Source of the DNA: Sphagnum compactum
Lineage: Eukaryota
Assembly (NCBI GenBank): GCA_965153455.1
Contig: OZ234493.1
Span: 1,922,001-1,986,000 of the forward strand
Direction: 5' to 3'
DNA: 64,000 bases
This document shows positions 10,221 through 49,127 of this stretch, in pieces. The translations under genes were made by a program, and so were the position numbers. Under the pieces are notes generated by a model, which worked only from the letters and a program-made list of their open reading frames with translations, did not search any database and was not told the origin of the DNA. Each line of letters begins with the position of its first letter. Position 1 is the first letter of the stretch.

Positions 10221-10795
10221 CGGAGCAAACAGCAAACCTTCTTTATGTTTTGTCGGAAACAAAATCTTTTGGAAAACTCTTATGCTTTTGTTTCGGAAAC
10301 CAAACAAACAAAATGATTGGGGAAAAAAAAAACCAAAACAGAAAGAATTGGAATAAGCCTCTTGGTGACTCGTCAATTCTTTGTGAGGAGGAGCTTCATC
10401 ATCAGCATCATCATCGTGGTTCTTGTTGTTGCGGAGTGAGTGGATTGGCGGACAACGGGACAGTTGCAAAACATCTGGCTTAAGAAGACTTGAAGAAGAA
10501 GCTGAAGAAGAAGAAGAAGAAGCTGCTATGGAATTGTTTTTGTGCATTGGCCCATCATCTTGTTGTTGTTGTTGTGACAGTAGTGGGTCGTTGTTCAGAA
10601 GCTTCATCTTCTTCTCATCTTGGAAGAGAAGATCGGAAATAACAGATGGAGTGGCGGGAACTCGATCTTGGTTTAGGAATCCTGAACTGGAATTGACTCC
10701 TGCTGAGGGTTGTGATTAGAGAGACAGACACACAGACACAGACAGAGAGTAGGGCAGAGTCTCATTTTGTTGGTGGGGGGGGGTTTGTTGCATGA

Positions 10796-13700
10796 ATGAC
10801 TTCCTTCATGTCTGTTGTGATTGGCTTTTGCTTTCTCACTGCTATTTCTGTCGTGAGAATTCATGGCCTTTCTGCGCAGATTTCCTCCTCAGATGATGAT
10901 GCTGGGATCTTGCTTGGATTCAAGCAGCAAGTGACAGGGGATCCTCTCAAGGCACTGGCAGGTTGGGGACCTGATGCGGCAGCAGATCCTTGCAGTTGGA
11001 ATGGGGTGAATTGCACCAGCTCCAGAGTGACCGGCCTAACCCTCAACAGCTTTAACCTAATTGCCAATGCTTCAGCCATAGGTGAGCTCAGTCAGCTGGA
11101 AATGCTGAGTTTTTTGTCTCTGGCTGGCAACAATTTCTCAGGTGCACTTTCAGAGGCACTCAGTTTCAACAATGATGTTGGAATGAAGTGCAGTTATGAG
11201 TTTCTCGACCTCTCGGCAAATTCGTTATGTGGTCAAGTCACAGGGAATGCTGTTGGGAGCTGCAAGGTGCTCAAAAGCTTGAATCTTTCCAATAACCAAT
11301 TGACTGATGGGATCCCAGCAGGGGTGCTCGGAGGCTTGCAGTTGAACCTACTGGATTTGTCGCACAATAATCTTTCTGGAGCTATACCGGGTGATATTGT
11401 CGTGAATTGCAGCAATTTGGAATACCTAGATCTCTCTTACAATAATTTCTCACAAGGATTACCTGGGGGATTCAGTGCCTGCTCAAAGCTTGTATATGTG
11501 GACCTCTCTTGCAATTCGCTTGTTGGTGTGATTCCATTTGATTTCTCAGTGACCCTATTTTCCCACCTCAATCTTTCATACAACAAGTTCATGGGCAGCT
11601 TTCCCTCCTCTCTATTGAATTGCACACAATTGCAGGTCCTTTCTCTTGCGCACAATCAGTTTATTGGAGAAATCCCCAGTTATGTAGGCAGTTTGCAGCT
11701 TCTCCAGGATCTTGATCTGGGAGCAAACAATTTCTCTGGTCCATTCCCACATGCAGTTTTGAATTGTTCCAGCTTGATGTTTCTTGACCTGAGCTCAAAC
11801 CAGTTTAGTGGGATCATTCCTGCTGAGATATGCCCTGTTTCTTCACAACTCAAGTGGCTATGGCTTCAAGACAATGGCTTTTATGGGTCAATCCCACCAG
11901 AAGTTTCCAACTGTTCACAGTTGATCAGCCTTGACCTCAGCTTCAACAACATGAGTGGGATGATCCCCAGTGACCTCCAGAAGCTTACCAACCTTGAGTC
12001 CTTGGTGCTCTGGTTCAATAATTTTGAAGGTCAAATTCCTGTTGAGCTTGCAAACTTGACTAACCTTCAAAATCTGATCCTCAACAACAATAACCTGCAA
12101 GGTACAACTTTGTCCCACTTCATTACTCACTTTTCTTTCGTCTTTTGTAAAAGATTCAATGTGCTCACAGTTTGTGCTCCCTACTACCCATCTTTTCTGC
12201 ACATCCTTTGAAGCTCCCAGAAATTGATTGAAGTCCAATCTGTAAAAACCCTGCTGTAGCCCAGAGCAAAACATGAAGATCTCAATTGTGATCTAATCAA
12301 GCTCAGGGGAAATGTACACACGCCATAGTCCATCACCCAGAACAACCTCTGATTAGAGAGAGAGAGAGAGAGAGAGAGAGTAGTAGATTGTATGGTCTTT
12401 GATTTGCAATAGGGTTTTATTCCTCATAGGGGAACTTTCATGTCTGTAGAATCAAAAGATCAAGTAGCTCTTTTCTTCCAAATCTCATAGATTTGCTGGT
12501 GGGTGTGGGCAAGAGTTGCAGGAAGTATACCAGCAGAGCTTTCAAACTGCAGTATGCTACAGTGGCTGTCACTGTCTGATAACAACTTGACTGGCACAAT
12601 ACCACCAAGTCTTTTTAACCTTCCAAGACTTGGGGTTCTGCAGCTGGGCAACAACAAGCTGACAGGTGTCATACCTCCTGAGATTAAAAACAGCATGAAT
12701 CTGTTCTGGCTAGACTTGTGCTTAAATAATCTGAATGGCACTATCCCATCACAATTAGGACGAACATCCCATTCTGCTAACGGAATCCTAGACAACTGCG
12801 AGATGGCTTTTATGACATTTCTGGATGCATCTTGCAAAGGCATTGGGGGGTTGATGGATACAGCAGGAATACGCCTCTCAGATTTAAGTGCAATACACAA
12901 TTGTCGTACTAGGTTGTACAACCTTGATAGACAGGAGTTGCAGAATGCTCCCACGCTTGTGTTCTTAGACCTCTCCCACAATGCTTTTGAAGGCTCGATT
13001 CCAAGTGACATTGGTGATTTTTATTCGCTTCTTATCCTCAACTTGGACCACAATAGCTTGTCAGGAGAGTTGCCAGGAAGCCTTGGTGAATGTGCAGAGC
13101 TCATGGCCCTCGACTTATCATCAAATGATTTCAGCGGTCCAATACCTGAGTCTTTCACAAACTTAACCTTGCTTCAGGACTTCAACATCTCAAACAACAA
13201 CCTCTCTGGAAAGGTTCCTGGTGGTCAGCTCCTTGACTGGCCACCATCAGTTTATGCCAACAACCCAGGGTTGTGTGGTTTGCCACTCCCGAATCTGTGT
13301 GTGTCAAGATCCCTCAATCAGACTGCACCCTCAAAATTGTCCTGGAGGGGGGGCCGGGCAGATCATGTTGTGATGGTGCTCTTTATTTCATTGGGGGTTA
13401 TACTTGTGCTTCTCTGGACCTTGTGGCTGCGACGTAAGTCTTTGAAATATTGCCTCAAAGCTCGAACTGAAGAAATCACCTCCTCTTCAGTCAGGGCCTT
13501 GAAGAATGAAGACCAGGCGATTAGTGTTGCCACCTTTGACTTTGGGTTGCAGGAAGGCCTCAAGGAGCTCACATTCGGTGACCTTCTTGAGGCCACCAAC
13601 AACTTCAGCTCAGAATGCATCCTTGGGTCTGGTGGCTTTGGGGAGGTCTATAAAGCAAAGCTGAGAGATGGGTCTTTAGTGGCAGTAAAGAAGCTCATCT

Positions 13701-14497
13701 ATCTCACAAACCAAGGCGAACGAGGTTTTCATTCAGAGATGGAGACGCTCGGCAATGTAAAGCATAAAAACTTAGTCCAATTGCTTGGCTATTGCATTAC
13801 ATCAGAAGACAGGATTCTAATATACGAGTTCATGCCACATGGAAGCCTAGAACGAATGTTGCATGGGGAATGTCAAATACCACAGGAGTTATGTTCAGGA
13901 GCGCAGCAAAGTTTGTCATGGGCAGCTAGGAAAGTAATAGCAGTCGGAGCAGCACGAGGGCTAGCATATTTACATCATGGATGTGATCCACACATCATCC
14001 ACCGTGACTTTAAGTCAGCCAATGTGCTGTTGGATGCAGATTTTGAGGCCCGAGTTTGTGACTTCGGAATGGCGAGGTTTATTAGTTCATGTGAGACACA
14101 TCTAAGTGTGAGCACTTTAGCAGGGACACCAGGGTATGTACCTCCAGAGTATTACCAAAGCTTCCGGTGCTCCCGACAAGGTGATGTGTACAGTTATGGG
14201 GTTGTGTTGCTTGAGCTTATAACTGGCCGATGCCCAACTGACAAAGATGAATTTGGAGACTCCAATCTAGTTGGGTGGACAAAGCTGAAGCTCCATGATG
14301 AAGCAGCACTCAATGAAATTTTTGACCCGACACTGCAACACAATAGTGCAGGCAAGTGCAACAACAATGCTGAACTTGTGCAGTATTTGAGGATTGCCTG
14401 TGATTGTCTTGAAGATAATCCTGCCAATCGCCCTACTATGCTTCAGGTTGTTGCAACCCTAAAAGAGATTTCGTTAGACTGTTGTGATTTCCAGTAG
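10796..14497 (+). CDS. BRI1/BRL-like LRR receptor kinase (LRR-RLK X) with island domain; exons 10796-12101 and 12522-14497, about 1093 aa
   Basis: Domain order: signal peptide (MSVVIGFCFLTAISVVRIHG), LRR N-cap (DPCSWNGVNC), about 18 LRRs, island (12761-12952; CKGIGGLMDTAGIR...HNCRTRLY), 4 more LRRs, C-cap (NNPGLCGLPLPNLC), TM helix, then kinase (GSGGFGEVYKA, VAVKK, HRDFKSANVLLD, DFG). The activation segment THLSVSTLAGTPGYVPPEYYQSFRC is the BRI1/BRL signature. A phase-1 GT-AG intron at 12102-12521 joins NNLQG/SIPAEL in frame. Confidence 0.95.
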
Positions 14498-17400
14498 CTT
14501 GTGTACAGATTCAAATTTCCTGTCACTGAGGTATGCTGCTCTATTTCCAATCAAAATACCCATAACCTGTAATCATTATAACTTTTACCCTATAGAGAAC
14601 TGGGTGGTTCTGCCCCCAGGAAGGGTCATCTCCTTATACCAGTCACAGAGACTGTCAGAGATGCTGGAGCTAGTCTCAGGCTCTGGGCTAATTTGCACAG
14701 GCATTAAACTCAAACTTGGGAAGATAAAAACTAAACTTCCCTTTTCATTAAGCACTTACAATTGTAGATTAGAACACTGCCAGATGCCCAGATGTGGGCA
14801 CATTTCATTGGTTATAGTGTAGTATACCCATACTTAGTGTCTTTGTACATTATCTATTTTGTTAAGTGCTCATATACACTCCTTTTGTAACAGTCCTCTG
14901 TAGAGATACAGATGTAAAACCAAAGGATCTCTTTCATTGCCTTAAGAGGCTAGTAGATGATCATGGTAAAAGATACAAGGGCTTCACTGCATGTGAAAAA
15001 TTCCAGATCATACATACTTGCTGAGTGTGTTTTTGTAATTGTATCTTTCAACATGCTGTGATAAGGAACTTTCACAATACCTGGGGCAAACTTGTGATTC
15101 TGTGAAAGTTAGTTGTTTTTTCCAAGATATAGAAACTTAGCTCCAAAAAGGTCCTTGGATTACATACAATCACATACACTGTCTTTAGCTTGTCTTTTGG
15201 AGGATTTTGCAGACTTTGAGTGTTCAAACCGTAGATGAAACGTTGAGTCTGTTCCCAGCAAGCATGCAGTAGGATCTTGGAGTGGTGACAAGATCAGTAT
15301 GATGGTAGTAATATAAGTGCTGTGTATAAACCAAGATGCAACACTTGCATGAGCTGCAAATCCTGAAGTCTTCATTGAAAAGGCAATGCCCTAGGTTCCT
15401 TGAATTATGGATGCTTTCATAAACCTCAAGATGCTCACATGTTGCACCCTGAACATTTGATCCAACTTAACCTATTGCTTCAGAATCTACCCATTTGATC
15501 ACATTCATCAACACGCTCTTTGATGTAACCTCCAAACTAAGTCCCAACTTAAATGGATATATATATATATATATGAGGAATAAAAAATATGTTGATCCTT
15601 TTGCATCATTTCAAATGTCAAGTGAGGATTGTAAAAGATCTGCATGGAGTAACCAAAACATGTTTTGGTCGAAGAGGAATGAGGACCCAATGCATATTAA
15701 TTGATCACGAGAAGAACTGCCGGTTATACTTGTCATTTCTAATAACCAGCCGGCACTGGTAGATATATCTCCATCTGTTGGGGAGCCCACACATGAAATC
15801 CCCAGAGTACAAAATACATGCTCAAAATACAAAGTAAAACCCCCTTTATAATCACGCCATTGGCGACCACTTTTGTTTTGTGAGACTAACGAATTGTGAT
15901 TTAAACATGTATAGTCAGTCACATTCCATATAAACCCTTACAAGATTATGAGTTATATGCCAACAAATCTTGTATCAGAAAAGAAGAATGTGGCAGTTTC
16001 TACACCATGTAAAGCCCTTGGGGGGTGAGCTTTACTAGAGACAAGCCTCTGCTCAGCTCCAATAAAACCTGCCCTATGAGCTTTACTCTACACAGTAAGG
16101 TGGAAAGTTTTTAGTGTGAGTGGAGGGCACCTTACCTTTGTTAAAATCTTTGCCTAAACAACAACAACGGATGGCACCTTCTTTAATATGCGCAAGGTAG
16201 GCCTCCTCTCCTTCTCAAACAAAATAACAGATATGCTATATATTCCTAGAACAGCCCCATTTTGTGGTCCTTACCCTACTACACATAAAAAATTCAATGG
16301 TTTCTTAATGAATTGTTAGCATCTCGAAAGCAAGAAGGGACCAAATTGGAGGTGTTCTCTGATACATATTTGTAGTAAAGCTTGAATTATTTTTAGCCTT
16401 TCCTTCCCTTTCTTTTTTCTCCTTTTTTTTTGTTGTTGTTTTGACAGTACCCACAAGCCTTACAATAAGTGGGCTATCATGGTGTTTCCAAATTGTTACT
16501 TGGAGTATAAGGCGTGTGGGCAAAAATTGATACCATTTTTGTCGGGCGTAAAAGTGGTGTTAATAGGATGGTTTATTGTATGGTTTCTCACGTCATCCAT
16601 GTGGCACCCATCACATGCACCTACTCCTTGAATCACATAGGTAGTAGTCATCTTCGACATATTTATTTTCCTTTTTCTTTCAAAAAGTCAGGTATTTTGG
16701 GGTTGTGAGTGGGTTGCTAAGAAGATGAGTGTAGTTCCTTGGCAACTTCTTCACATGTTTGTTGAATAATTAATTAATTAATTAATTAATTATTCATTTT
16801 GATGAATATAATGTTCCCGATGATGATTCGTTATTTTTCTTTGAATTTATTTTTTTAAATCAACATTTTTGAAAAAACATAAATAGTGTCAAACCTGCCA
16901 AGGTCTTACGGTAATGAAACCAAGCAAAACAAGCAAAACCAGGTGTGAGTGCAATGTGTCAAGAAAGGGTTCACAGTTAGAACAACAAAATCCCCCAATC
17001 AAATCTGTCCTCCCCCAACATTAAAAAAAAAACTGACATAATTTAATTCATAAGTAGTCTTCTCAACTTTGATATAGAAGATTGGCGATCATTACGGTAT
17101 AGAAAGTTCATGAAACAATTGATGAGACCATCTATGGAAATCAAATGGGAGTTGTCTCAATGATGATCTATTTTTAATGCTGAAGACATCATGTGGATCT
17201 TTTTTGTACAAGCATCAAACCAACTTCATCTTCAAGGTTTAAAAACACCAAAGTTAATTATAGACATCTTTGATTTTGAAGATTGTAAGCCTGTTGTTAT
17301 TCCACCCATGATGTACACAACATACAAATATTGAAACAAGCCTAGCATATAAAAGTTGTTGATGAAAGGAAATAGGTTAAGTTGAATTCATTTGTCATCC

Positions 17401-22848: not shown

Positions 22849-25627
22849 TAAAACCAGTGTTTGGTCGCTACTTTACCCTCATGAAGAAAGAACCTCCGGT
22901 TCTGGTTCAAGAAAAATAAAATAAAAACTATCTCAAGTTTTGCTTCCCACATGTAAAATGAAATCCACAATCTAGTTTTGCGTCTGGATTTTTATTTTAT
23001 TTTTTATTTTTCTAAAATTCAGGTTTTGGGTTTTGAAAAATGAGAGTTATCGATTCCAATTTGGTTCTTCTTATTATTAACCCAGACAGATCAAAAACCA
23101 ACAATTAACTATCAGTCAACCCTTGGTAGAAGAACTAGTCACTTTTTTTTTCCTTTCAAAAATCTCATCTCAGTGTCCAACTCTGGTTCCACACCTAAAA
23201 ATACAACTGGAAACCTGGTTCCAGCTTTAGCTTCTGTCACTCTTTAAGAAAAAAGAAAACCTGGTTTGGTTACAGGTTCTTTCTTAAAAACCAGAATTGA
23301 AGAAATTCATGGTTTTATGGATACCCTACCTACCTACCCACCTACCTACCCACCCAACATTGGTTCAAACCACAGCCACCACCAACACAAGGCCAAAAAG
23401 GCTGGATCATGGGTAAAGAAAAGGGTTTTCAGGACTGTTGTTGGCTGGCTGGCTCATCAGCTGCTTCCCTACAAGAACCAAACAAGGACGTCGTGGTCGT
23501 GAAGCTTCGGGATGAAATGAAGCTTTCCATCCAGACGTAGAAAATAAGAAAAAATAAAACTTATAATAATGAAGAAAAACTCTACTTGAAAAAGAATGAG
23601 GTGTGTCTTCTTTCTCCAAACTTCAAACTTGCATCCAAATAAACAAAAATACAAAAGTGAAAAAGAAACACTTTATTTTTATTATAAATAATAATAATAA
23701 AAACAAAAAACACATAAAAATAAGAAATAAAAAAGATAAAAGTTTCTAGAAAAAACTAAAACATGAACCAAACATTGTTGAAATAACACACCTGTGCATT
23801 AGGCACAGGGTTCAAACTAGTTGCCAATAGATAAGATGTTGTACATGTACGATTTTGTGTCCACAGTCCAAACACCCAAAAAAATATTCGTTCCAATCTA
23901 AACAGTCTAAACACCAAAAAAAAACGAGTTCACCTAATGTGAAACTAATTTTTGACGGCCCATCTTAGATGTAGGTTGACTAATTGTCGCTGGTGTCAGC
24001 TGCGAAGCCAGCGTTCAGCCGGCACACTCGCAGGCAATCAGCTGCTCCCCAACTAGTTTTAATAAGGTAAAACTTCCAAAAGTTGAATTCGAATGAGATA
24101 GTCCCTTGTCCTTGTTTGTGGGGGTCAGGCAGGGCCCCAAGAAACCCCACAAGAGAAATGGGAAAATTATTCAGATTATCAAATGTTATGAATCAGATTG
24201 CCAACCGCCAGACAGAAAGAAATCATAATAATTCTTCTCCATAGCCGAAGAGAATTATGTTGTTGGTTTTGTTTTGTTGGAAGAATAACAATGAGGCAGG
24301 AGAGGACAGGATGATGATCTATTTCTCACTGCCCATCATCTTCCTGCAACAGGACAGTAGTAGGGCTTTAGACTTCTTCGATGATGCTGTTTTGCAGGAC
24401 ATGGTGGCACTCATAGGGTGGTGAGCTCATAGTACGTAAGCTTGAACAACCCGATTTCTTTCCACAGGACGCTGGATTTCAAAATATCTTGCTGTTCCCA
24501 TTTGTCTTCGCATTTGTTTTTCAACTTTTTATGTCTTCATCTTTTTTCTAAATTTTTTTTGTGGAACAAATGGACAAATCCAATGCAGACAGCAGCCAGT
24601 ACATGGATCAAAGATCAACAATGACAAAAGTCAATTAACCTCATCTGCGGAGCTTTGAGAAGGATCTGACAAGCTGCTTTTTGTGAAGAAGAAGCGAAGA
24701 AGGAGCATCTCATCATCTTCTTCTTCTTCTTCTTCTTCTTGTTTATCACACTGTTGTTGTTGCTGTTGTTGTAGTTCTGTCATCATCATCATCATAGCAC
24801 TCCACCACAGAATCTTTGCTTGCTACACGTTTCCTTCACACCCATCAAGCTCACAAGCTGAGTTGAGCTTTTGCTTGTTTTGTTTTTGGTCTTTGGGTGT
24901 GTGTGAGTTCAAGTTTAGAAGCTCCTTCTTCTCTCTTTCTTTCTGTCTGTGTTTTGAGGAGACTCAATTGGGGTTTTGTGGGTGTGTCTTTTTTGTGTGT
25001 GTGTTTTGTGTGGTAGTTTTTGAAGAACAAGTGTTGGGGAAGTGCAACAAGGGTAAGTTCGGTTTGTTTTTTTTTCGTCTTGGGTTTTTTCTTTTTTCTT
25101 TTTTAGGAGAAGGATGCATAGTAGTTGCAATTAGCGCTGATAGAGATTAGGAGAGGAGGATCTTGAGAGAAGGAGAAGGAATCACGGAGGTGGTGGTGGG
25201 TGGAAGACTGTTGAATTGAAGGAAACAAAAGTTTGTTTCAAAAGGGGCAACAAGCAGTGGAGAGCCGAAGGAGAAGAAAGAAGAGCGAGGAGGAAGGAGA
25301 AGAAGCAGAAGCTAGAGCGAGGAAGGAGAGGGAAGGCCTTTTCATGGTGTATGTAAGTCACGTTTCCAAAGAAGCAATTCTCAGGAAGCAAGTGACCTCG
25401 GAGCAGCAGCAGTAGATTTGGAGGAGGAATAGCGCGAAGATTGATGTTCTGAGAAGGAGAGAGAGTAGGGAACAGCGAAGGAAAGAGGAGAGAAGAAGAA
25501 TCATCATCATCATCATCATCATCACAAGCTTAGCTTCAATCCTTAGAGAAATTTGGCAAACTAAAGGAGAATTCTTAAGGAGGAAAACAAAATCTGGGAC
25601 GTCAGCAAGCTTGAAACTGTGGAGAAG

Positions 25628-28600
25628 ATGCAGCACTCAGCAATAGGAAGAGGAGGAGGGACAGGGACAACAGGAAAAGAGAAACTACACAAGGATTCAC
25701 AGCTGCAAATGGCATTTACAAACAAGCAGAGTAATTTTGTGGCAGCAGCAGGAGGAGGCGAATCTACACCATTAGCAGCAAAGCTCCAACAAGCATGGCT
25801 GCAATCACAGTTGCCTAAGGGACAGGATAGTACTCCACATTCCTCATCCTTTGATGCTGAAACTCGAGCTTTTGATGCTGAAGCTCAAGCTTTTAACCAG
25901 AAAAGCAGAGAGCCTCTGACAATGACAACATCAACAACAACATCACCATCGTCATCATCGTCATCATCATCAAAGACAATGACAACAACATTTACAAAAC
26001 CAACACCACCAACAATAACATCAAAGCAGACATCATTGTTTTCACATCTTCATAAGAGTTCTTATGGTGCCCCACCACCAATTCTCCATTCCTTCTCCAC
26101 CCATGATGCCAACTTGAACAACCATATGTCGTTTTTTTCTGAAGACCCTTATTCTGTGGGAAATTCAAACTCTCCAACCAGAGGGCCAGAATCTCTAGCA
26201 TTCCTTGATGAGATGCTCATGCAGGAGGAGGAAGATATCGACTCAGAGCAATTGTATATGAATGAAGAAAGCATGGACTACAATGAGATGCAAGTAACAT
26301 TCCTTGATCAAATGCTCATGGAGGGAGATGTTATGAATGGCAGCAAGCCATGTCTGTACCAAGAAAGCACTGCATACCAAGCCGTGGAGAAGGGTTTTGC
26401 CGATCTCATCAATGAAGGTTCTCTGTCGACTAGTACTACTAAACCGAGCTACTACAGCTTTGTGAATAGCAGGGAAGAGGGGGCAGCAGCATGGGGTGCA
26501 CAAACAGAGTGTAATAATGTAGGGTGGAATCAATCTCTCGACTTTAATCAGTTGTCAGAAAAAATTTACGAAGATGATGTGCTGAATGATTATGCAGACA
26601 TTCTGAGTCGGCATCTTGGAGAACTGGGTCTTGAGTCTTCTACAAACATCTGTAGCAATAGCAGCAACAATGATGCAAACCACACAGGTGTCCTCATGCA
26701 TGAAACTCATAACCCTAGAACCATTTACAAGAACATGAGCCAAGAAAGTACAAGCACTGGGGTGGGCATGAATCTTCCTCAAGGAAGTAACATTGGTGTG
26801 TTGCAACACAATGCCAAGTTTGCATTTGATAGTGGCGATGAGCATGACTTGACAAATTTGCTTATCACGTAAGAGAACAACACATGCCCATACAAGTATG
26901 ATTTCAATTTTGGAATTGTTGATGGACAATGTCATGCATGCAGTGCTGGATCTGAGGTGACAGAGAGAAGTTATATCCTCAATTTTCTTTTCTCTAAAAT
27001 CTAACACATTGTATGTCCACCCACAATTGCAGATGTGCAGAAGCGGTGAAACAAAATGATGTCAGGAAGGCTAGTAGAATCATTGAAGAGCTTCGTGCTC
27101 TTACATCACCTTCTGGAAGTGGTGCGCAACGCATGGCTCATTACTTCACAGATGCATTGGTAAGATTTTTGCCTTGCTTATGCACTTTGCCTTGCTTTTC
27201 TCGCGATCTCTACTGGACATTGAGAGGTTGGGTATTTGGTGTTGGAGGTGCAATACATTCTAGATTGTCACTTGCGCTCCTACCCATGTGTTTTTTTTCA
27301 TCTATTTTTGCTGAATGCCTTTTGGATGAATTGAATATTCTAGGTTGCTAAAATGTTTGGAACTGGTCCACAACTTTCTGCTGCACTTCGCAACAATGCC
27401 CCTTCACCTGCTACGATGTTGCGGGCCTATAAGGCACTTGTGCTGCATGGTCCATACTTGACACTTGCCCATTTCAGTAGCACTGTTGCAATCCTGAATG
27501 CTTTCAAGGGAGCGACCCGAGTGCATTTGGTTGACTATGGCCTCAATTATGGAGGCCCATATCTGAGTCTCATTCAAGAACTTGCAAGGAGACCAGGAGG
27601 GCCACCCAATCTTCGAATCACAGGTGCTTGGGTCATCTCTTGTCAACTTCTCCTATCTCTTTTGTGAATATCTCTAGGGTACAAATCAGAGTTCATGATC
27701 ACAATTCATTGTTCCATTATTGTCGAAGTGTTGGGTTGTAGTGATTTCTTTAAAATCTTGCAAATCTTAAAAACAACTTTTAGAATGGTTTTTCATGATG
27801 ACTTTTGTGAGAATTCAGGAATAGAGCAAGCACTTGACACAAAGTGCAAGCCATCAGAACTCCTAATACGATGTGGTCAAAGGCTCTCTGAGTTTGCAAA
27901 GACATTGGAAGTGCCATTTCAATACACGGCAATTGCTGACAAGTGGGAGAATGTAACAGCAACCCAACTTGGTCTAAGGCCTGATGAAGTGCTCGTAGTC
28001 AATGTAGCTTACAGACTCTCCAACCTTTTGGATGAATCTGTTATAGTAGCAAATCCTCGCCAAATGTTTCTAAACAAGATCCGAAGCATGAATCCAAAGG
28101 TAAATGCCAATCACCAAAAGGTTAAATTTACATGGATCTTGCTATGTTATTGTTCTCTAAGTTGAAACACTTGTTCAGATCATGTAGTTTTCTATTGGAA
28201 ATGGTTGTTGGTTTCTTTTGCTTGAACACATCTTCTGTGAGCTCAATGGGCTCTACCTCATAATTTCACACATCATCAACAATATTCCACATTCTACATA
28301 CATCTCATTAGTGTTTTATTTGAATTGTGCAGGTTTTTGTAGCAGTAGTGGCAAATGCAAGTTTGAATGAGCCTTTCTTTATGTCTCGTGTTCGTGAGAC
28401 CATCAAGTATTATTCAATACAGTTTGATACACTTGATGTAATAATGCCCCCCTATCTTAAGGAAAGATTCTTAATAGAGCGGGAGATTTACGGTCGAGAG
28501 ATCCTAAACATTATTGCTTGTGAGGGTCTCGAAAGAGCGGAGCGACCTGAGTCCTATAGGCAATGGCATAGCCGCATTCAACGAGCTGGCTTTGTTCAAA

Positions 28601-28749
28601 AGCCACTACAACTATCCGAGACCAATACAATCAAGTCCATACTGCGCTCCTATGACAAACGCTTTGGCATTGGACGAGATGGTGGTTGGTTTCTTTTCGG
28701 ATGGAGCAATCAAGTCATGAATGCGTTCTCAATATGGGAGCCAACCTGA
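25628..28749 (+). CDS. GRAS transcription factor, LISCL/SCL14-like; exons 25628-26868, 27033-27159, 27344-27623, 27819-28099, 28333-28749, about 781 aa
   Basis: All four introns are GT-AG and keep frame. GRAS motifs: LHRI (LTNLLITCAEAV...GSGAQRMAHYF), VHIID variant VHLVDYG, RPGGPPNLRITG, NIIACEGLERAERPESYRQW and a C-terminal SAW variant SIW. The N-terminal FLDQMLME...KPCLYQESTAYQAVEK motif matches the LISCL/SCL14 clade. The start ATG is uncertain (25628 or 25709). Confidence 0.93.
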
Positions 28750-43786: not shown

Positions 43787-46700
43787 TCACGCTCTACATC
43801 TTTTCTTCGCCGGTCTAGTGTGGAATTCTTCTATGGCTTCTTGGGCATGTTCCATGTCGGATTCATTCACCCAAGAAGCCTCTATTGCATGGTAACCTTT
43901 CCACTTAACTAAGTATTCCCGCTCTCGCCCTCTAAGTTGCCTTGATTTGAACACGGCCTCTACCTCAAACTCTAGTTCATTATGAACCAAGTTCGGTGGA
44001 GGCCTTGAATGATGCTTTCTATTAGGCCTTGAGGCGTCGCGGGAAACCAGCTTCAAAAGGGAAACATGAAATGTGGGATGAATTCTAATATTTTCTGGTA
44101 ATTCTAACTTATAAGTGTCGGAAAGTTTCTTTTCCAACACTTTGAATGGACCCGCATATAGGCCCATAAACTTATGACTTAACCCTTCGGGCAACCGGGA
44201 GTTCTTGATGTTCAACCACACTCGTCTCCTTCTTGAAACTTCACCTCTCATCGGGACTTGTCCGCAAAATCCTTGTACCTTTTGTGCGCCTTTTCCAAGT
44301 TGGCTTTTGCCAACTCCCATAAGCGCTTCCTTTCTTCATCAAGTTGTGTGACCATTGGCACTTCCTCACTTGCATCAATCGAAGGTTGTCCTTGTGCGGC
44401 CCAAGTCATGGGCATAATTGGTGACTTGCCCGTCACCATTTGGATTGGGGTGGATCCCGTTCCGGAGTGTACCAAGTTGTTGTAACAAAACTCGGCTAAC
44501 TCCAAATGATCCACCCAATCTTGTTGATCCGCCGCCACATAATTCCTTAGGAATTGTTGGATCACCAAGTTCACCCTTTCGGTTTGTCCATCGGTTTGGG
44601 GGCGGAATGAAGTGCTCATCTTGAGTTCCGACCCCATTCGCTTCCACAAGGCCCTCCAAAACTTACTCGTGAACTTTGGATCCCGATCCGACACTATGTC
44701 CTTTTGAAGGCCATGATGCTTGAAAATGTGGGAGAAGAACAACCTCCCCGTCTCTTGAGCCGTGGCTTCATCCTTTGTGGGGATGAAATGTGCCATTTTG
44801 CTAAATCAATCCACCACAACCATGATGGCATCGAACCCCTTTGAAGGGGGCAAACTTACCATAAAGTCCATTGACACACTTTCCCACGGCCCTTCAGGAA
44901 TTGGCAAAGGTTGCAACAAACCCGCTTGCTTTTTGTTGAGGGTCCGGTTTTGTTGACAAGTTAAACAAGTCTTCACGTACTCCTCCGCATCATCCTTCAA
45001 GTTGGGCCAATAGTAGGACTTCTTTAGGAATGTTGTGGTGCGCTTTGCACCACCATGGCCCGCAAGCGGCCCATCATGACATTTCTTCAAAAGTGTGTCC
45101 CTAAGTTTCCCTTCCGGCACATAGAGTCGGTTTTGTTTGTACCACAACAATCCATTTTTCAAATGGAAGTGGGACTTGGCTCCATTTTGGATGCTTTGCC
45201 TTGCCTCCTTGGCAAAAGCATCCTGGCGGTTCGCTAGCCTAACTTCCTTTTGAAATTCCGACTCTCCAACATACACCACTCTAAGTTTGTGTTTTCGGCT
45301 CAAGGCATCGGGGACTATGTTCTCCTTTCCCGGCTTGTGCCAGATGTCCACATTGAACAAGGCCAATGTGTCTTGCCACCTTTGTTGTTTTGATGACAAC
45401 TTGGGTTGAGTTGCGAAGTACTTCAAGGTCACATTGTCGGTCCACACCACCACATATTTGGAGCCTATGTAATGGCCCCAAGTCTTGAGACTATGTATGA
45501 CCGCCCACATTTCCTTCTCGTGTGTTGGCCACCTTCTCTCCGTTTCACTCAACTTCTTGCTTTCAAAGGCCACCGGTCTTCCATCTTGCACTATGACACC
45601 CCCAATTGCAAAGTCGGAAGCGTCGGAATGGATTTCAAACTCCTTGTCAAAGTCGGGCAACTTCAACACCGGCGCCTTCACCAAAATGCCCTTCAATGTT
45701 CCAAAGGCTTCGTCGCATGTTTCATCCCAATCATAAGTGACAGCGGACTTTTTCAAGAGGTTTGTCAAAGGGGCCGCTATTCTCGCAAAGTTCTTTATGA
45801 ACTTGTGATAATACGAGGCCAATCCTAAAAAGGATCTCAAGGCAGGAACCGAGTTAGGCGGCTCCCAATCCAAAATCGCCTTGACCTTGTGATCATCCAT
45901 CATCAAACCATCTTGAGTTATCCTATGCCCAAGGAAATCCACTTCCGTCACCCCAAACTCGCACTTCTCGAGCTTGGCATACAAACTTGTTCTCCCTTAG
46001 CCTTTGGAACACCTTGCGAAGGTGCTCCGCATGCTCCTCCATGGAGCTACTATAAATCAAAATGTCGTCTATGTAGACGACCACAAAATCGTCAAGCCAT
46101 TCGCGGAAAATGTCATTCATGAGGGTGCAAAATGTGGCGGGTGCATTGGTGAGCCCAAAGCGCATCACCAAGAACTCATATGACCCATACCTTGTGCGAC
46201 AAGCGGTCTTTTCTTCGTCCCCTTCCGCGATCCTTATTTGGTAATACCACGAACGTAGATCAATTCTACTAAAAACTTTGGCTCCCGAGAGACGATCGAA
46301 TAGATCATCGATGCGAGGTAAAGGATAACGATTTTTCACCGTTGCCTTATTGAGTGCTCTATAATCAACACACATCCTCAAAGTCCCATCCTTCTTGTGA
46401 ACAAAAAGGACGGGTGCCCCATATGGCGACTTGTTTGGTTTGATGTAACCTTTCGCGAGGAGTTCCTTAAGTTGAACCTTGAGTTCCTTCAACTCCTCGT
46501 GGTTCATTCTATATGGGGCCTTGGCGGGCGGTTCCACTCCTGGTATCACTTCAATCGCATGATCAACTCGTCTTCTTGGGGGCAAGTCTTCGGGCAAGTC
46601 TTCGGGCATCACATCCGGGAACTTTTCCAAAACCTTCCTTATGCACTTGGCGGAAGTCACCAACTTGGTGGCTTCCTCGGGCTCATACTCATCCAACACC

Positions 46701-48268
46701 CGCATGACACACATCATGCCAAAACCTCCCACGAGTTCACTTTCCCAAGCTTTTCCTAACATAAAGTGGATAGTTGGACCACCCACACAAGGCAACTCAT
46801 GTGCCTTGACTCGCACAATCCCACTTTTAGAGGGGATTCTAACTAACCTATTGTGCCCTTCAATGAGCACATTGTTTTGGGTAATGAATTCCATTCCCAA
46901 AACGCATTCCATTCCACCCAAGGTGGAAACTAACAAATCCACTTTTCCTCTCCAATTTCCCAATTGGAGAGGCACTCCCTTTGCTTGTAGTGTAGTTGGA
47001 TGGGGAACCCCATCCGCGAAATGCACCTCAATGGGTGCCTTGAGCTCCTCCAAGTGGAGTTCCATCCTTTCGGCGCTCTCACGAGTTATGAAGTTGGGAG
47101 AAGCCCCTGTGTCCAAAAGACATAAAATTTCCCACTTAGCAATCTTCCCTTTCAAAAAGATAAGTCAATTGCATTCCGGTTGGGCTAGAGTGGCATTGAG
47201 AGCAAGTACCTTAGAGCTCCCCACTCCCGATTTGGATTTGGGACAATCTTTGGAGTAATGCCCCACCTCGTTGCAATTGAAACATGCTCCCTTGGGTTTT
47301 GCTCCAAAATCTCCCTTGGGTTGGCTCCCTTTGAAGGGTGCCCCCTTCTTCACGAAGCTACCTTTTGGTTTGAACCCCGAGCCTTGGAATTGTTTTGGCT
47401 TATCCTTGGTTGGGCTACCTTACCCCCGGTTCCATTCCCCCTCATGCCTTGGCTTTTTGTGGAGGAACTTGTTGTCCTTCTTGAACCCGGATTTGTCACT
47501 CCGCCCCACATCCGAGAAATTCTCCACTTTCGTGATGGCCTCTGATAATGAGGCGGGCCAACTTTCCTCAAGCTTCCGCTTGGCCCAAGTTGGAAGCCCC
47601 ATCACAAATTGGCACACATGATCCAACTCGTGCATGTGCCGGATCTCCAACATGAGCTCGGAATAAGCCCTCACATATTGCCTCAAGTTCTCATTTTTGG
47701 CATTCACAAGATCTCGGAGCTTGCACCTCGAGATGTAGTCGGAGTTCCTCGGAACAAACTCCGATTCAAAGCGCTCCTTAAAGAACTCCCACGTGTAGCC
47801 ATGGTTCTTGCCCTCCTCTTGTCTTACCGTCCGCCACCATGTGGCGGCATAGCCTTTCAAGTAGGATTGGGCAAGCTCCACGGCGGAATTCCGTCCAACC
47901 TTGGCGGCATGAATATAGTCGTCCATTTCCGCAAGCCAAGCATCCACAACCTTGCGGTCGCGGGCACCATCGAAGTTCCCAGGCTTGGCCGGTTGAAACC
48001 TTTCACCCTTGGAGGTCCCCGTTTTGAAGGCCGCCACCAACTCACCAAAGTCGAGCCTATTCATCTTGAGGAGGACTTCAAGTTGCTCCGGGGTGAATAG
48101 GACCGAACTCCGTTGTTCCTCCTCACTTTCGGGTTCAACCTCGGGCTCATCTTGGTCCTCCCGAAAGTTTGGTTCCTCCCCAATTGATTCCGGCGGGGCT
48201 ACTAGGTCATCGACGGGCTCCTCGGACCTGGGCTCTGGAGCTAGCTTCCGGTTCTTCTTGAATGCCAT
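43787..48268 (-). pseudogene. Disrupted single-ORF gag-pol polyprotein
   Basis: Gag from MAFKKNRK, zinc knuckle CFNCNEVGHYSKDC, protease LLDTGAS, RT ([18 protein letters not shown]), RNase H (SDASDFAIG), integrase (H..H..C..C, SDRDPKF, GQTERVN) and chromodomain (FEVEAV...YLVKWKGY). In-frame stops at 47420, 47165 and 44806; frameshifts near 45985 and 44250. Confidence 0.93.
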
Positions 48269-48310
48269 CCCAAAATGTCTTTGAGCTTCACCTTGAGCTC
48301 TGATACCACG

Positions 48311-49127
48311 TGACGCGCTCCTTGGTCCCGGGGTGAACGCACTTGAGGGTTCACCAATGTGAAGTTGCGGAAAGTTGGGACCGAAGGGCACGCTCCCAAC
48401 TTCCAACTCTAGAAAGGGGTAGAGGGTCGAGCTGGAAGCCCCGGGATTAGACTAGGACGAGGGACTAGTAGATCAAGCACGAATCTACATCAAAAACCAA
48501 CCACAAATGGGTTAGTTCACATTCGGGAACACCCTTGGGTGTTGGGACGAGCCACGGGCACTTTGGACTACTTGACTCACCACAGCCCGGACTCGGGGGA
48601 AGCCACCACCTTCCCCCTTATAGTATACTCTGCAGCTCGCCACGGAGGCTACATCCAAATGGCACATTTTCTTGGGACTCCCGAAATGGAGTCCCGAAAC
48701 TGTCCCGGCAGGACTCTTGGAACTTTGAACGGTCATAACTCCCGACTCCGGAGTCCGATCACAACGAGGTCCAAACCAAAGTTGTAGTCCTCGTCAAGAT
48801 CTTTTCAACGTCATGTTGCACTCCCCAAGGCAACGTCGGGAAAGGATTGATTCTTGACTTTTAGTGGTCGGGAGTCAAACTGCCAGTTTGACTCCTGGCC
48901 CTTCTTTTGCCCATAACTTGGGCTGCAGATGTCCGAATGGCAAATGTGAGGCCATTTTCGATATCTAAGTTTCAAGACCTTTCCAATGACACCATCGCCT
49001 CAAGGCGAGGTGTTTTGGGCCTTGCTGTCGCACTCTGAACATTTAAAAGTCCCAGAGGACTTCAAACCTCCAACTTTTCCAAGTGTTGGGCTTCACCCCC
49101 ACACTTGGCCAAAGTGGGGTTGCGACA
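48311..49127 (-). repeat. 5' LTR (817 bp)
   Basis: Direct repeat of 42188-43007, followed on the minus strand after 2 nt by the tRNA-Met PBS. About 95% identity by eye (11 differences in the first ~245 bp). Confidence 0.95.

Follow-up and report, generated by a model that had tools for sequence, protein, structure and literature searches.

Cell-surface receptors of the BRI1/BRL family carry a non-repeat island domain of about 70 residues, four repeats ahead of the membrane, within an ectodomain of leucine-rich repeats (LRRs). Members that bind brassinosteroids exist in seed plants (PMC8876890). In BRI1, Trp564 and Gly644 were found to be the most important residues for binding, while changes at Tyr597, Lys601, Thr646 and Met657 were without effect; the physiological ligand of the related BRL2 is described as unknown (PMC13481262). 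The timing of the first cell-surface steroid sensing in plants is still debated. A BRL from a moss whose island is intact and whose kinase resembles that of BRI1 lends itself to testing this question. Here we describe such a gene, located on the + strand of a 64,000-nucleotide stretch of the peat moss Sphagnum compactum (contig OZ234493.1, positions 1,922,001 to 1,986,000; hereafter the window). It encodes a BRI1/BRL-family receptor for which high-affinity brassinolide sensing of the BRI1 kind is unlikely, and weak to moderate, BRL2-like brassinosteroid binding or a lineage-specific ligand more likely.

That peat mosses have members of the BRI1 family is not new. An earlier sequence-only reading of this locus had cautioned that this might be so, and BRL genes in Sphagnum have indeed been reported (PMC9223546), with no Sphagnum entry in the supplement of that paper. 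A full-text literature search yielded no paper on the pocket residues or binding of moss BRLs, a topic that Ferreira-Guerra 2020 and Furumizu and Sawa 2021 may cover. What is added here is modest: a gene model supported by RNA, a residue-by-residue comparison of the pocket, and an indication, no more than a hint, that the island diverges more rapidly than the remainder of the protein when close relatives are compared.

Island domain, family placement and gene model

The insert of 64 non-LRR residues that had been recognised ahead of the last four LRRs is translated exactly as quoted, from 12761-12952 of the + strand (aa 516-579), and the BRI1/BRL-type pattern C540-x-G542-x-G544-x-L546...G551-I-R553...C563...R566-x-Y568 is present in it. 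Using phmmer, residues 2-259 of the 269-residue exon-2 ectodomain were aligned, unbroken through the island, to the solved ectodomain of Arabidopsis BRL2 (222 bits), and residues 1-256 to that of Arabidopsis BRL1 (190 bits); BRL3 and BRI1 were matched over comparable ranges. Because a single alignment passes through the island to solved BRL ectodomains, the island is no chance insert. The fold of the same 269 residues was predicted with AlphaFold2 from a 50-sequence alignment, the earlier LRRs lying outside the model, and reached a mean predicted local distance difference test score (pLDDT) of 87.3, with block means of 67-87 in the island. The top Foldseek matches of this model were the ectodomains of BRI1, BRL3 and BRL1, with template-modelling (TM) scores of 0.83-0.85 and root-mean-square deviations of 2.6-3.3 Å. 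The TM score to PSKR1 was 0.61-0.70, and the apo BRL2 crystals, in which the islands are reported to be domain-swapped and partly disordered (PMC13481262), also ranked below BRI1, BRL3 and BRL1. The best solved match of the kinase was the BRI1 kinase (4oh4, 399 bits).

Relatives were collected from a large protein collection. Among the best 120 near-length matches, the closest was P0001, a 664-aa metagenome open reading frame at 97% identity, and the other 119 were at or below 50%. The rows with gene names were overwhelmingly BRI1-like 2/BRL2, many others being called hypothetical protein, and Ginkgo, Cryptomeria and the lycophyte Diphasiastrum were represented. A search at longer length returned BRL1/3, BRI1 and one fern sequence. 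In the searches made, near-identical sequences came from metagenomes only. The proposal that the gene is of non-seed-plant origin agrees with the labels of the RNA runs that contain it (moss or plant metagenome) and with the absence of any named protein above 50% identity. The protein is most like BRL2 or a BRL that preceded the duplication, and less like BRI1 itself.

A tree of 53 rows was then inferred from the 687 columns that correspond to aa 400-1085, by a careful IQ-TREE analysis under LG+C20 with posterior mean site frequencies. The ten outgroups were non-island LRR kinases taken from 50%-identity representatives; by PDB search, one of them was PSKR1-like (P0337) and another had a BRI1-like kinase and no named ectodomain match. 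The 43 island-bearing rows formed a single clade (support 100/100) against the ten outgroups, which bears out the expected grouping with BRI1/BRL and not with PSKR in this check of the LRR-X tree, where EMS1 was not included by name. A receptor of the PSKR/PSY1R type was accordingly rejected, the PSKR1-like outgroup being separated at 100/100 and the TM score to PSKR1 being lower. Within the clade, the moss protein joined P0001 (100/100), then P0243 (100/99), then Diphasiastrum (84/72). This group stood outside a clade (82/95) that unites fern and seed-plant BRL2 (99/94) with BRI1 and BRL1/3 (100/99). The most likely origin is descent from a single BRL gene that preceded the fern/seed-plant split into BRL2 and BRI1/BRL1/3.

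P0243, which came from the search of 50%-identity representatives, is an unnamed 719-aa metagenome protein, 55% identical to the moss protein, with its own diverged island, and constitutes a second moss-like BRL lineage. Both proteins carry the unusual kinase motif HRDF in place of HRDM. A search with P0243 found no named close relative, and the metagenome scan yielded no locus for it.

The gene has two exons and encodes a single-pass LRR receptor kinase of 1093 aa with the architecture of the BRI1/BRL type: a signal-peptide-like N-terminus, an LRRNT cap, an LRR solenoid, a predicted transmembrane helix and a Ser/Thr kinase (Table 1). A motif scan counted about 21-22 LRRs, 16 regular and two irregular ones ahead of the island and four behind it; the repeats flanking the island start at aa 496 before it and at aa 581, 605, 629 and 653 after it.

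Table 1. Position of the features of the moss receptor gene and of other features in the window
Feature	Position	Strand	Content	Evidence
receptor-kinase gene	10796..12101 joined to 12522..14497	+	two exons, 1093 aa
upstream open frame	10796-12211	+	underlies the gene
second open frame	12491-14497	+	underlies the gene; contains the island
exon 1	10796..12101	+	start codon, signal-peptide-like N-terminus, LRRNT cap, first ~14 LRRs; aa 1-435 and first base of codon 436	translation of the open frame; Pfam LRRNT_2, LRR_1, LRR_8
intron	12102..12521	+	420 bases, GT..AG, phase 1, (GA)n microsatellite inside
exon 2	12522..14497	+	last pre-island LRRs, island, four LRRs, C-terminal cap, transmembrane helix, kinase, stop codon
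LRR strand preceding the island	12704..12721	+	inner strand with F497, W498 (equivalent of BRI1 Trp564) and lineage-specific C502	alignment columns
island domain	12761..12952	+	aa 516-579, 64 residues	translation, alignment, AlphaFold2 model
post-island LRRs	12956..13243	+	four, aa 581-676; L606 equivalent to BRI1 Phe681
predicted transmembrane helix	13364..13429	+	aa 717-738, followed by a basic stop-transfer stretch	inferred by eye from sequence
protein kinase domain	13613..14455	+	aa ~800-1080	Pfam Pkinase, 155 bits; Gly loop, VAVKK, HRD, DFG
GRAS-family transcription factor gene	25565-28749	+	multi-exon
GRAS gene, N-terminal frame	25565-26872	+	long, Ser/Thr-rich	no Pfam match
GRAS gene, further frames	27668-28165; 28324-28749	+		Pfam GRAS, 72 and 121 bits
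Ty3/gypsy-type long terminal repeat retroelement	43787-48451	-	gag, aspartic protease, reverse transcriptase, RNase H and integrase across several frames

The gene is intact, spliced and transcribed. The gene stretch is contained in 20 public runs, including six RNA libraries from six studies, and the RNA contigs of four of these six were compared with positions 10300-14900. These contigs derive from a close relative in mixed samples and are evidence of presence and splicing, not of expression level. At about 98% identity they span 10792-12102 and 12520-14900, and in all four runs a contig joint skips 420 bases with GT..AG ends at the predicted splice. The same donor and acceptor and an intact frame are found in three close metagenome relatives (L001, L003 and L004).

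Lower-depth contigs also reach from exon 1 into the intron (12073-12549) in the four runs, and in two of them, X16 and X19, a contig crosses the whole intron; such contigs may stem from RNA before splicing or from carried-over DNA. Low-complexity repeats ahead of the start codon, at 10454-10607, accumulated a very high summed depth of contigs, many of them with loose ends, in each of the four runs. This pile-up most likely comes from unrelated transcripts that share simple repeats.

The ligand pocket and its variation

The residues lining the pocket were compared with those of 41 relatives, using BRI1 position numbers from PMC13481262 and PMC9570414 (Table 2).

Table 2. Equivalents of BRI1 pocket and scaffold positions in the moss protein and in 41 relatives
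BRI1 position	Moss protein	Relatives
Trp564	W498, kept	Trp in 41/41
Tyr597	Met	as Arabidopsis BRL2
Tyr599	Phe, aromatic kept	Phe or Tyr in 41/41
Lys601	Thr	Lys or Arg in 40/41
Asn602	Phe	Asn in 39/41
Cys609, Cys635	kept	near-invariant
Gly611, Gly613	kept	invariant
Leu615	kept	Leu in most
Phe618	Thr	Phe or Tyr in 37/41
Gly-Ile-Arg 620-622	kept	near-invariant; Gly invariant
Arg640, Tyr642, Phe658	kept	near-invariant; 658 Phe or Tyr in most
Gly643	Asn	variable
Gly644	column deleted	Gly in 35/41
Met657	Val	variable; Glu in 8/11 seed-plant BRL2
Phe681	Leu (L606)	variable

The cysteine pair, the G-I-R motif and the R-x-Y motif, which the sequence-only reading had described as kept, are present and conserved across the relatives; apart from the G-x-G glycines and the Gly of G-I-R, the scaffold columns are conserved in 36-40 of the 41. 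Two of the departures that it had listed were likewise recovered, namely Thr for the Phe before G-I-R and a different segment after the Tyr, where the Gly644 column is lost. The third does not stand, since the strand described as diverged, M-A-F, equals that of Arabidopsis BRL2 (Met557 and Phe559). This strand alone is no evidence for a different ligand because Arabidopsis BRL2, which shares it, binds brassinolide at about 200 nM. From the alignment, the real departures are Lys601 to Thr, Asn602 to Phe, Phe618 to Thr and the loss of Gly644. The set found in BRI1 proper (Tyr597, Tyr599, Lys601, Gly643-Gly644 and 25 LRRs) is replaced in the moss protein by Met, Phe, Thr, Asn with a deleted column, and about 21-22 LRRs.

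Two cysteines are specific to this lineage. C502 (12719-12721), on the inner strand of the LRR, is separated from the Trp by two inward-facing positions, and C528 (12797-12799) belongs to the first strand of the island. Neither varies among six close copies. At the position of C502, Asn is found in 39 of the 41 relatives. The two cysteines may be joined by an extra disulfide, which would tie the island to the core of the LRRs.

Five loci, 96-97% identical, were obtained from a metagenome scan, and three of them (L001, L003 and L004) span the whole gene. The gene as a whole is under purifying selection: the ratio of non-synonymous to synonymous rates (dN/dS, Nei-Gojobori) in three pairs was 0.24-0.33 for the whole gene, 0.12-0.22 for the kinase and 0.20-0.29 for the LRRs outside the island. 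In the island, the values were 0.38, 1.3 and 2.1, from 7 to 11 changes per pair. The island holds 10 of the 20 variable residues of aa 437-705, though it makes up only 64 of these 269 residues (Fisher p = 0.011, for close relatives). The variable island residues include the equivalents of 597 and 601, and the equivalent of Phe681, just outside the island, varies too. The six close copies show no variation at the scaffold residues or at either disulfide Cys. Compared with the relatives, the island is 24-37% identical, versus 46-51% for the flanking LRRs; in seed-plant BRL2 it is 72-82% identical and conserved at least as well as its flanks. These small and non-independent counts are a hint, not proof, that the island of close relatives evolves more rapidly than the remainder of their proteins.

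Weighing the ligand and the rival readings

We lean towards a moss receptor of the BRI1/BRL family that would bind a brassinosteroid weakly or moderately, in the manner of BRL2, or else a ligand of its own lineage. High-affinity brassinolide sensing of the BRI1 kind seems unlikely because near-invariant pocket residues are lost and the pocket lining varies between close relatives. By analogy with the known receptors, the island would fold back onto the inner LRR surface and form a hydrophobic groove with the conserved Trp. This groove would take up a small ligand, the receptor would pair with a SERK-type co-receptor, and the BRI1-like kinase would then signal. The data themselves establish the gene model, its expression, the family membership and the patterns of residues and rates; the ligand class, co-receptor use and downstream pathway are what we infer.

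Several points weigh against this reading. The proposed mechanism rests on homology, and the plasticity reported for the BRI1 pocket leaves brassinosteroid binding compatible with the sequence. The BRI1 numbering was transferred through Theobroma BRI1 (by an offset for 563-602 and by residue-letter anchors beyond) and not through the Arabidopsis sequence itself. The Pfam Island family PF20141 scores 18.1 bits, under its gathering cut-off of 23.6 bits; it is also missing from the precomputed domain lists of the close relative P0001 and of the 55% relative P0243. The pLDDT of the island is moderate, and the model is limited to exon 2, without contacts to the earlier LRRs. The island changes are few (non-synonymous/synonymous 4/3, 9/2 and 7/1) and come from three pairs that lack mutual independence. 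In the tree, one of the outgroups is presumably EMS1-like, EMS1 not being included by name. The moss branch is long. Forcing the moss clade with ferns and seed-plant BRL2 costs 4.6 log-likelihood units (approximately unbiased (AU) test, p = 0.30), forcing it with BRI1/BRL1/3 costs 10.9 units (AU p = 0.077, near rejection), and the AU tests exclude neither side of the split between BRL2 and BRI1/BRL1/3. The safest reading of the tree is a bryophyte BRL that would predate this split, and the AU result is compatible with membership on the BRL2 side.

That the protein is a moderate-affinity brassinosteroid receptor, like Arabidopsis BRL2 or the fern BRL2s, feeding a moss BES1 pathway, appears rather unlikely, even if several points speak for it. 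The M-A-F strand is that of Arabidopsis BRL2, and the equivalents of Trp564 and Tyr642 are kept. BRL2 itself has affinities of about 200 nM for brassinolide and about 400 nM for castasterone (PMC13481262), two of four Ceratopteris BRL2 ectodomains partly substitute for that of BRI1 (PMC9223546), and the BES1 genes of Sphagnum fallax respond when brassinolide is applied (PMC13466341). However, the Gly644 column is deleted in the moss protein, and a change of Gly644 to Asp strongly reduces binding by BRI1 (PMC13481262); Phe618, Lys601 and Asn602 are replaced by residues found in almost no relative; and the active fern receptors have Phe, not Met, at 597 (PMC9223546). Furthermore, the pocket lining varies between near-identical relatives, which is unexpected for a conserved hormone site. 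Alternatively, the pocket could be under relaxed constraint and the receptor could signal without a small-molecule ligand or via another surface, for example with a peptide or protein partner, the island surviving only as a structural plug. The island is the least conserved part (24-37% against 46-51% in the flanks, whereas the island of seed-plant BRL2 is conserved at least as well as its flanks), amino-acid variation is enriched in it, and its dN/dS is near or above 1 in two of the three pairs. We nevertheless regard this explanation as improbable, as no scaffold residue and neither disulfide Cys differs among six close copies, the equivalent of Trp564 is kept in the moss protein and in 41/41 relatives, the counted changes are few, and a rate exceeding the neutral one would indicate selection for change and not loss of function.

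A decaying or silent pseudogene copy, in which the island has merely drifted, is hardly credible. The odd island sequence and the Pfam Island score under the cut-off would fit it. On the other side, the frame of 1093 codons is unbroken both in this gene and in L001, L003 and L004, the splice sites are conserved, the whole-gene dN/dS is 0.24-0.33, and the set of catalytic kinase motifs is complete. Intact frames, purifying selection and the spliced RNA contigs in 4/4 runs compared led us to reject this possibility.

Returning to a receptor with BRL2-like binding or a ligand of its own, a more speculative extension may be considered, tentatively and with considerable doubt. The bryophyte BRL pocket might be a fast-evolving sensor of a different, possibly lineage-specific small molecule, not tuned to brassinolide and maybe braced by Cys502-Cys528; steroid sensing by BRI1-type receptors would then be a later gain of vascular plants, derived from an older receptor for a different ligand.

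Elsewhere in the window are a GRAS-family gene and a Ty3/gypsy-type element (Table 1). Since the domains of the latter are scattered over several frames, it appears to be a degraded copy. Rfam and tRNA scans of the window gave no matches.

Comparison with described receptors

PSKR1 and PSY1R depend on a SERK co-receptor. Like the moss protein, these LRR-X receptor kinases have an island close to the C-terminal LRRs (PDB 4z63), but theirs is of a different type; the PSKR-type outgroup rows P0337 and P0322 fail to align through the motif columns of the moss island.

The fern Ceratopteris has four receptors, CtBRL2-1 to -4, which like the moss protein are island-bearing BRLs of a non-seed plant and for which a role as brassinosteroid receptors has been partly shown (PMC9223546). 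The ferns group with seed-plant BRL2 (99/94), whereas the moss gene does not. Furthermore, the fern islands are longer, and the active fern copies carry Phe at 597.

With Arabidopsis BRI1 (PDB 3riz, 3rj0 and 4lsx; kinase 4oh4) the moss protein shares the architecture, the island lying four LRRs before the membrane, as well as the predicted fold (TM 0.83-0.85), the closest kinase, Trp564, Leu615, Tyr642 and the disulfide. BRI1 differs by its 25 LRRs and by Tyr597 and Tyr599, where the moss protein has Met and Phe; Lys601, Phe618, Gly643/644 and Phe681 are also changed. The moss gene has an intron, while BRI1 is intron-less (10.64898/2026.09.21.753065).

Among solved structures, Arabidopsis BRL2/VH1 (PDB 9s9c and 9u0g) scores highest in the alignment through the island (222 bits). 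Its short ectodomain of 21 LRRs (PMC13481262) resembles that of the moss protein, with about 21-22, and both proteins have Met at the position of Tyr597 and Phe at that of Tyr599. Identity is 32% in the island and about 47% over exon 2, and the moss island is about seven residues shorter. The Arg, Asn and Phe of BRL2 at positions 601, 602 and 618 correspond to Thr, Phe and Thr in the moss protein, which also lacks the Gly at 644 and has Val in place of Glu614 of BRL2. In the best tree the moss gene falls outside the BRL2 clade (82/95), with an AU p of 0.30 for its inclusion.

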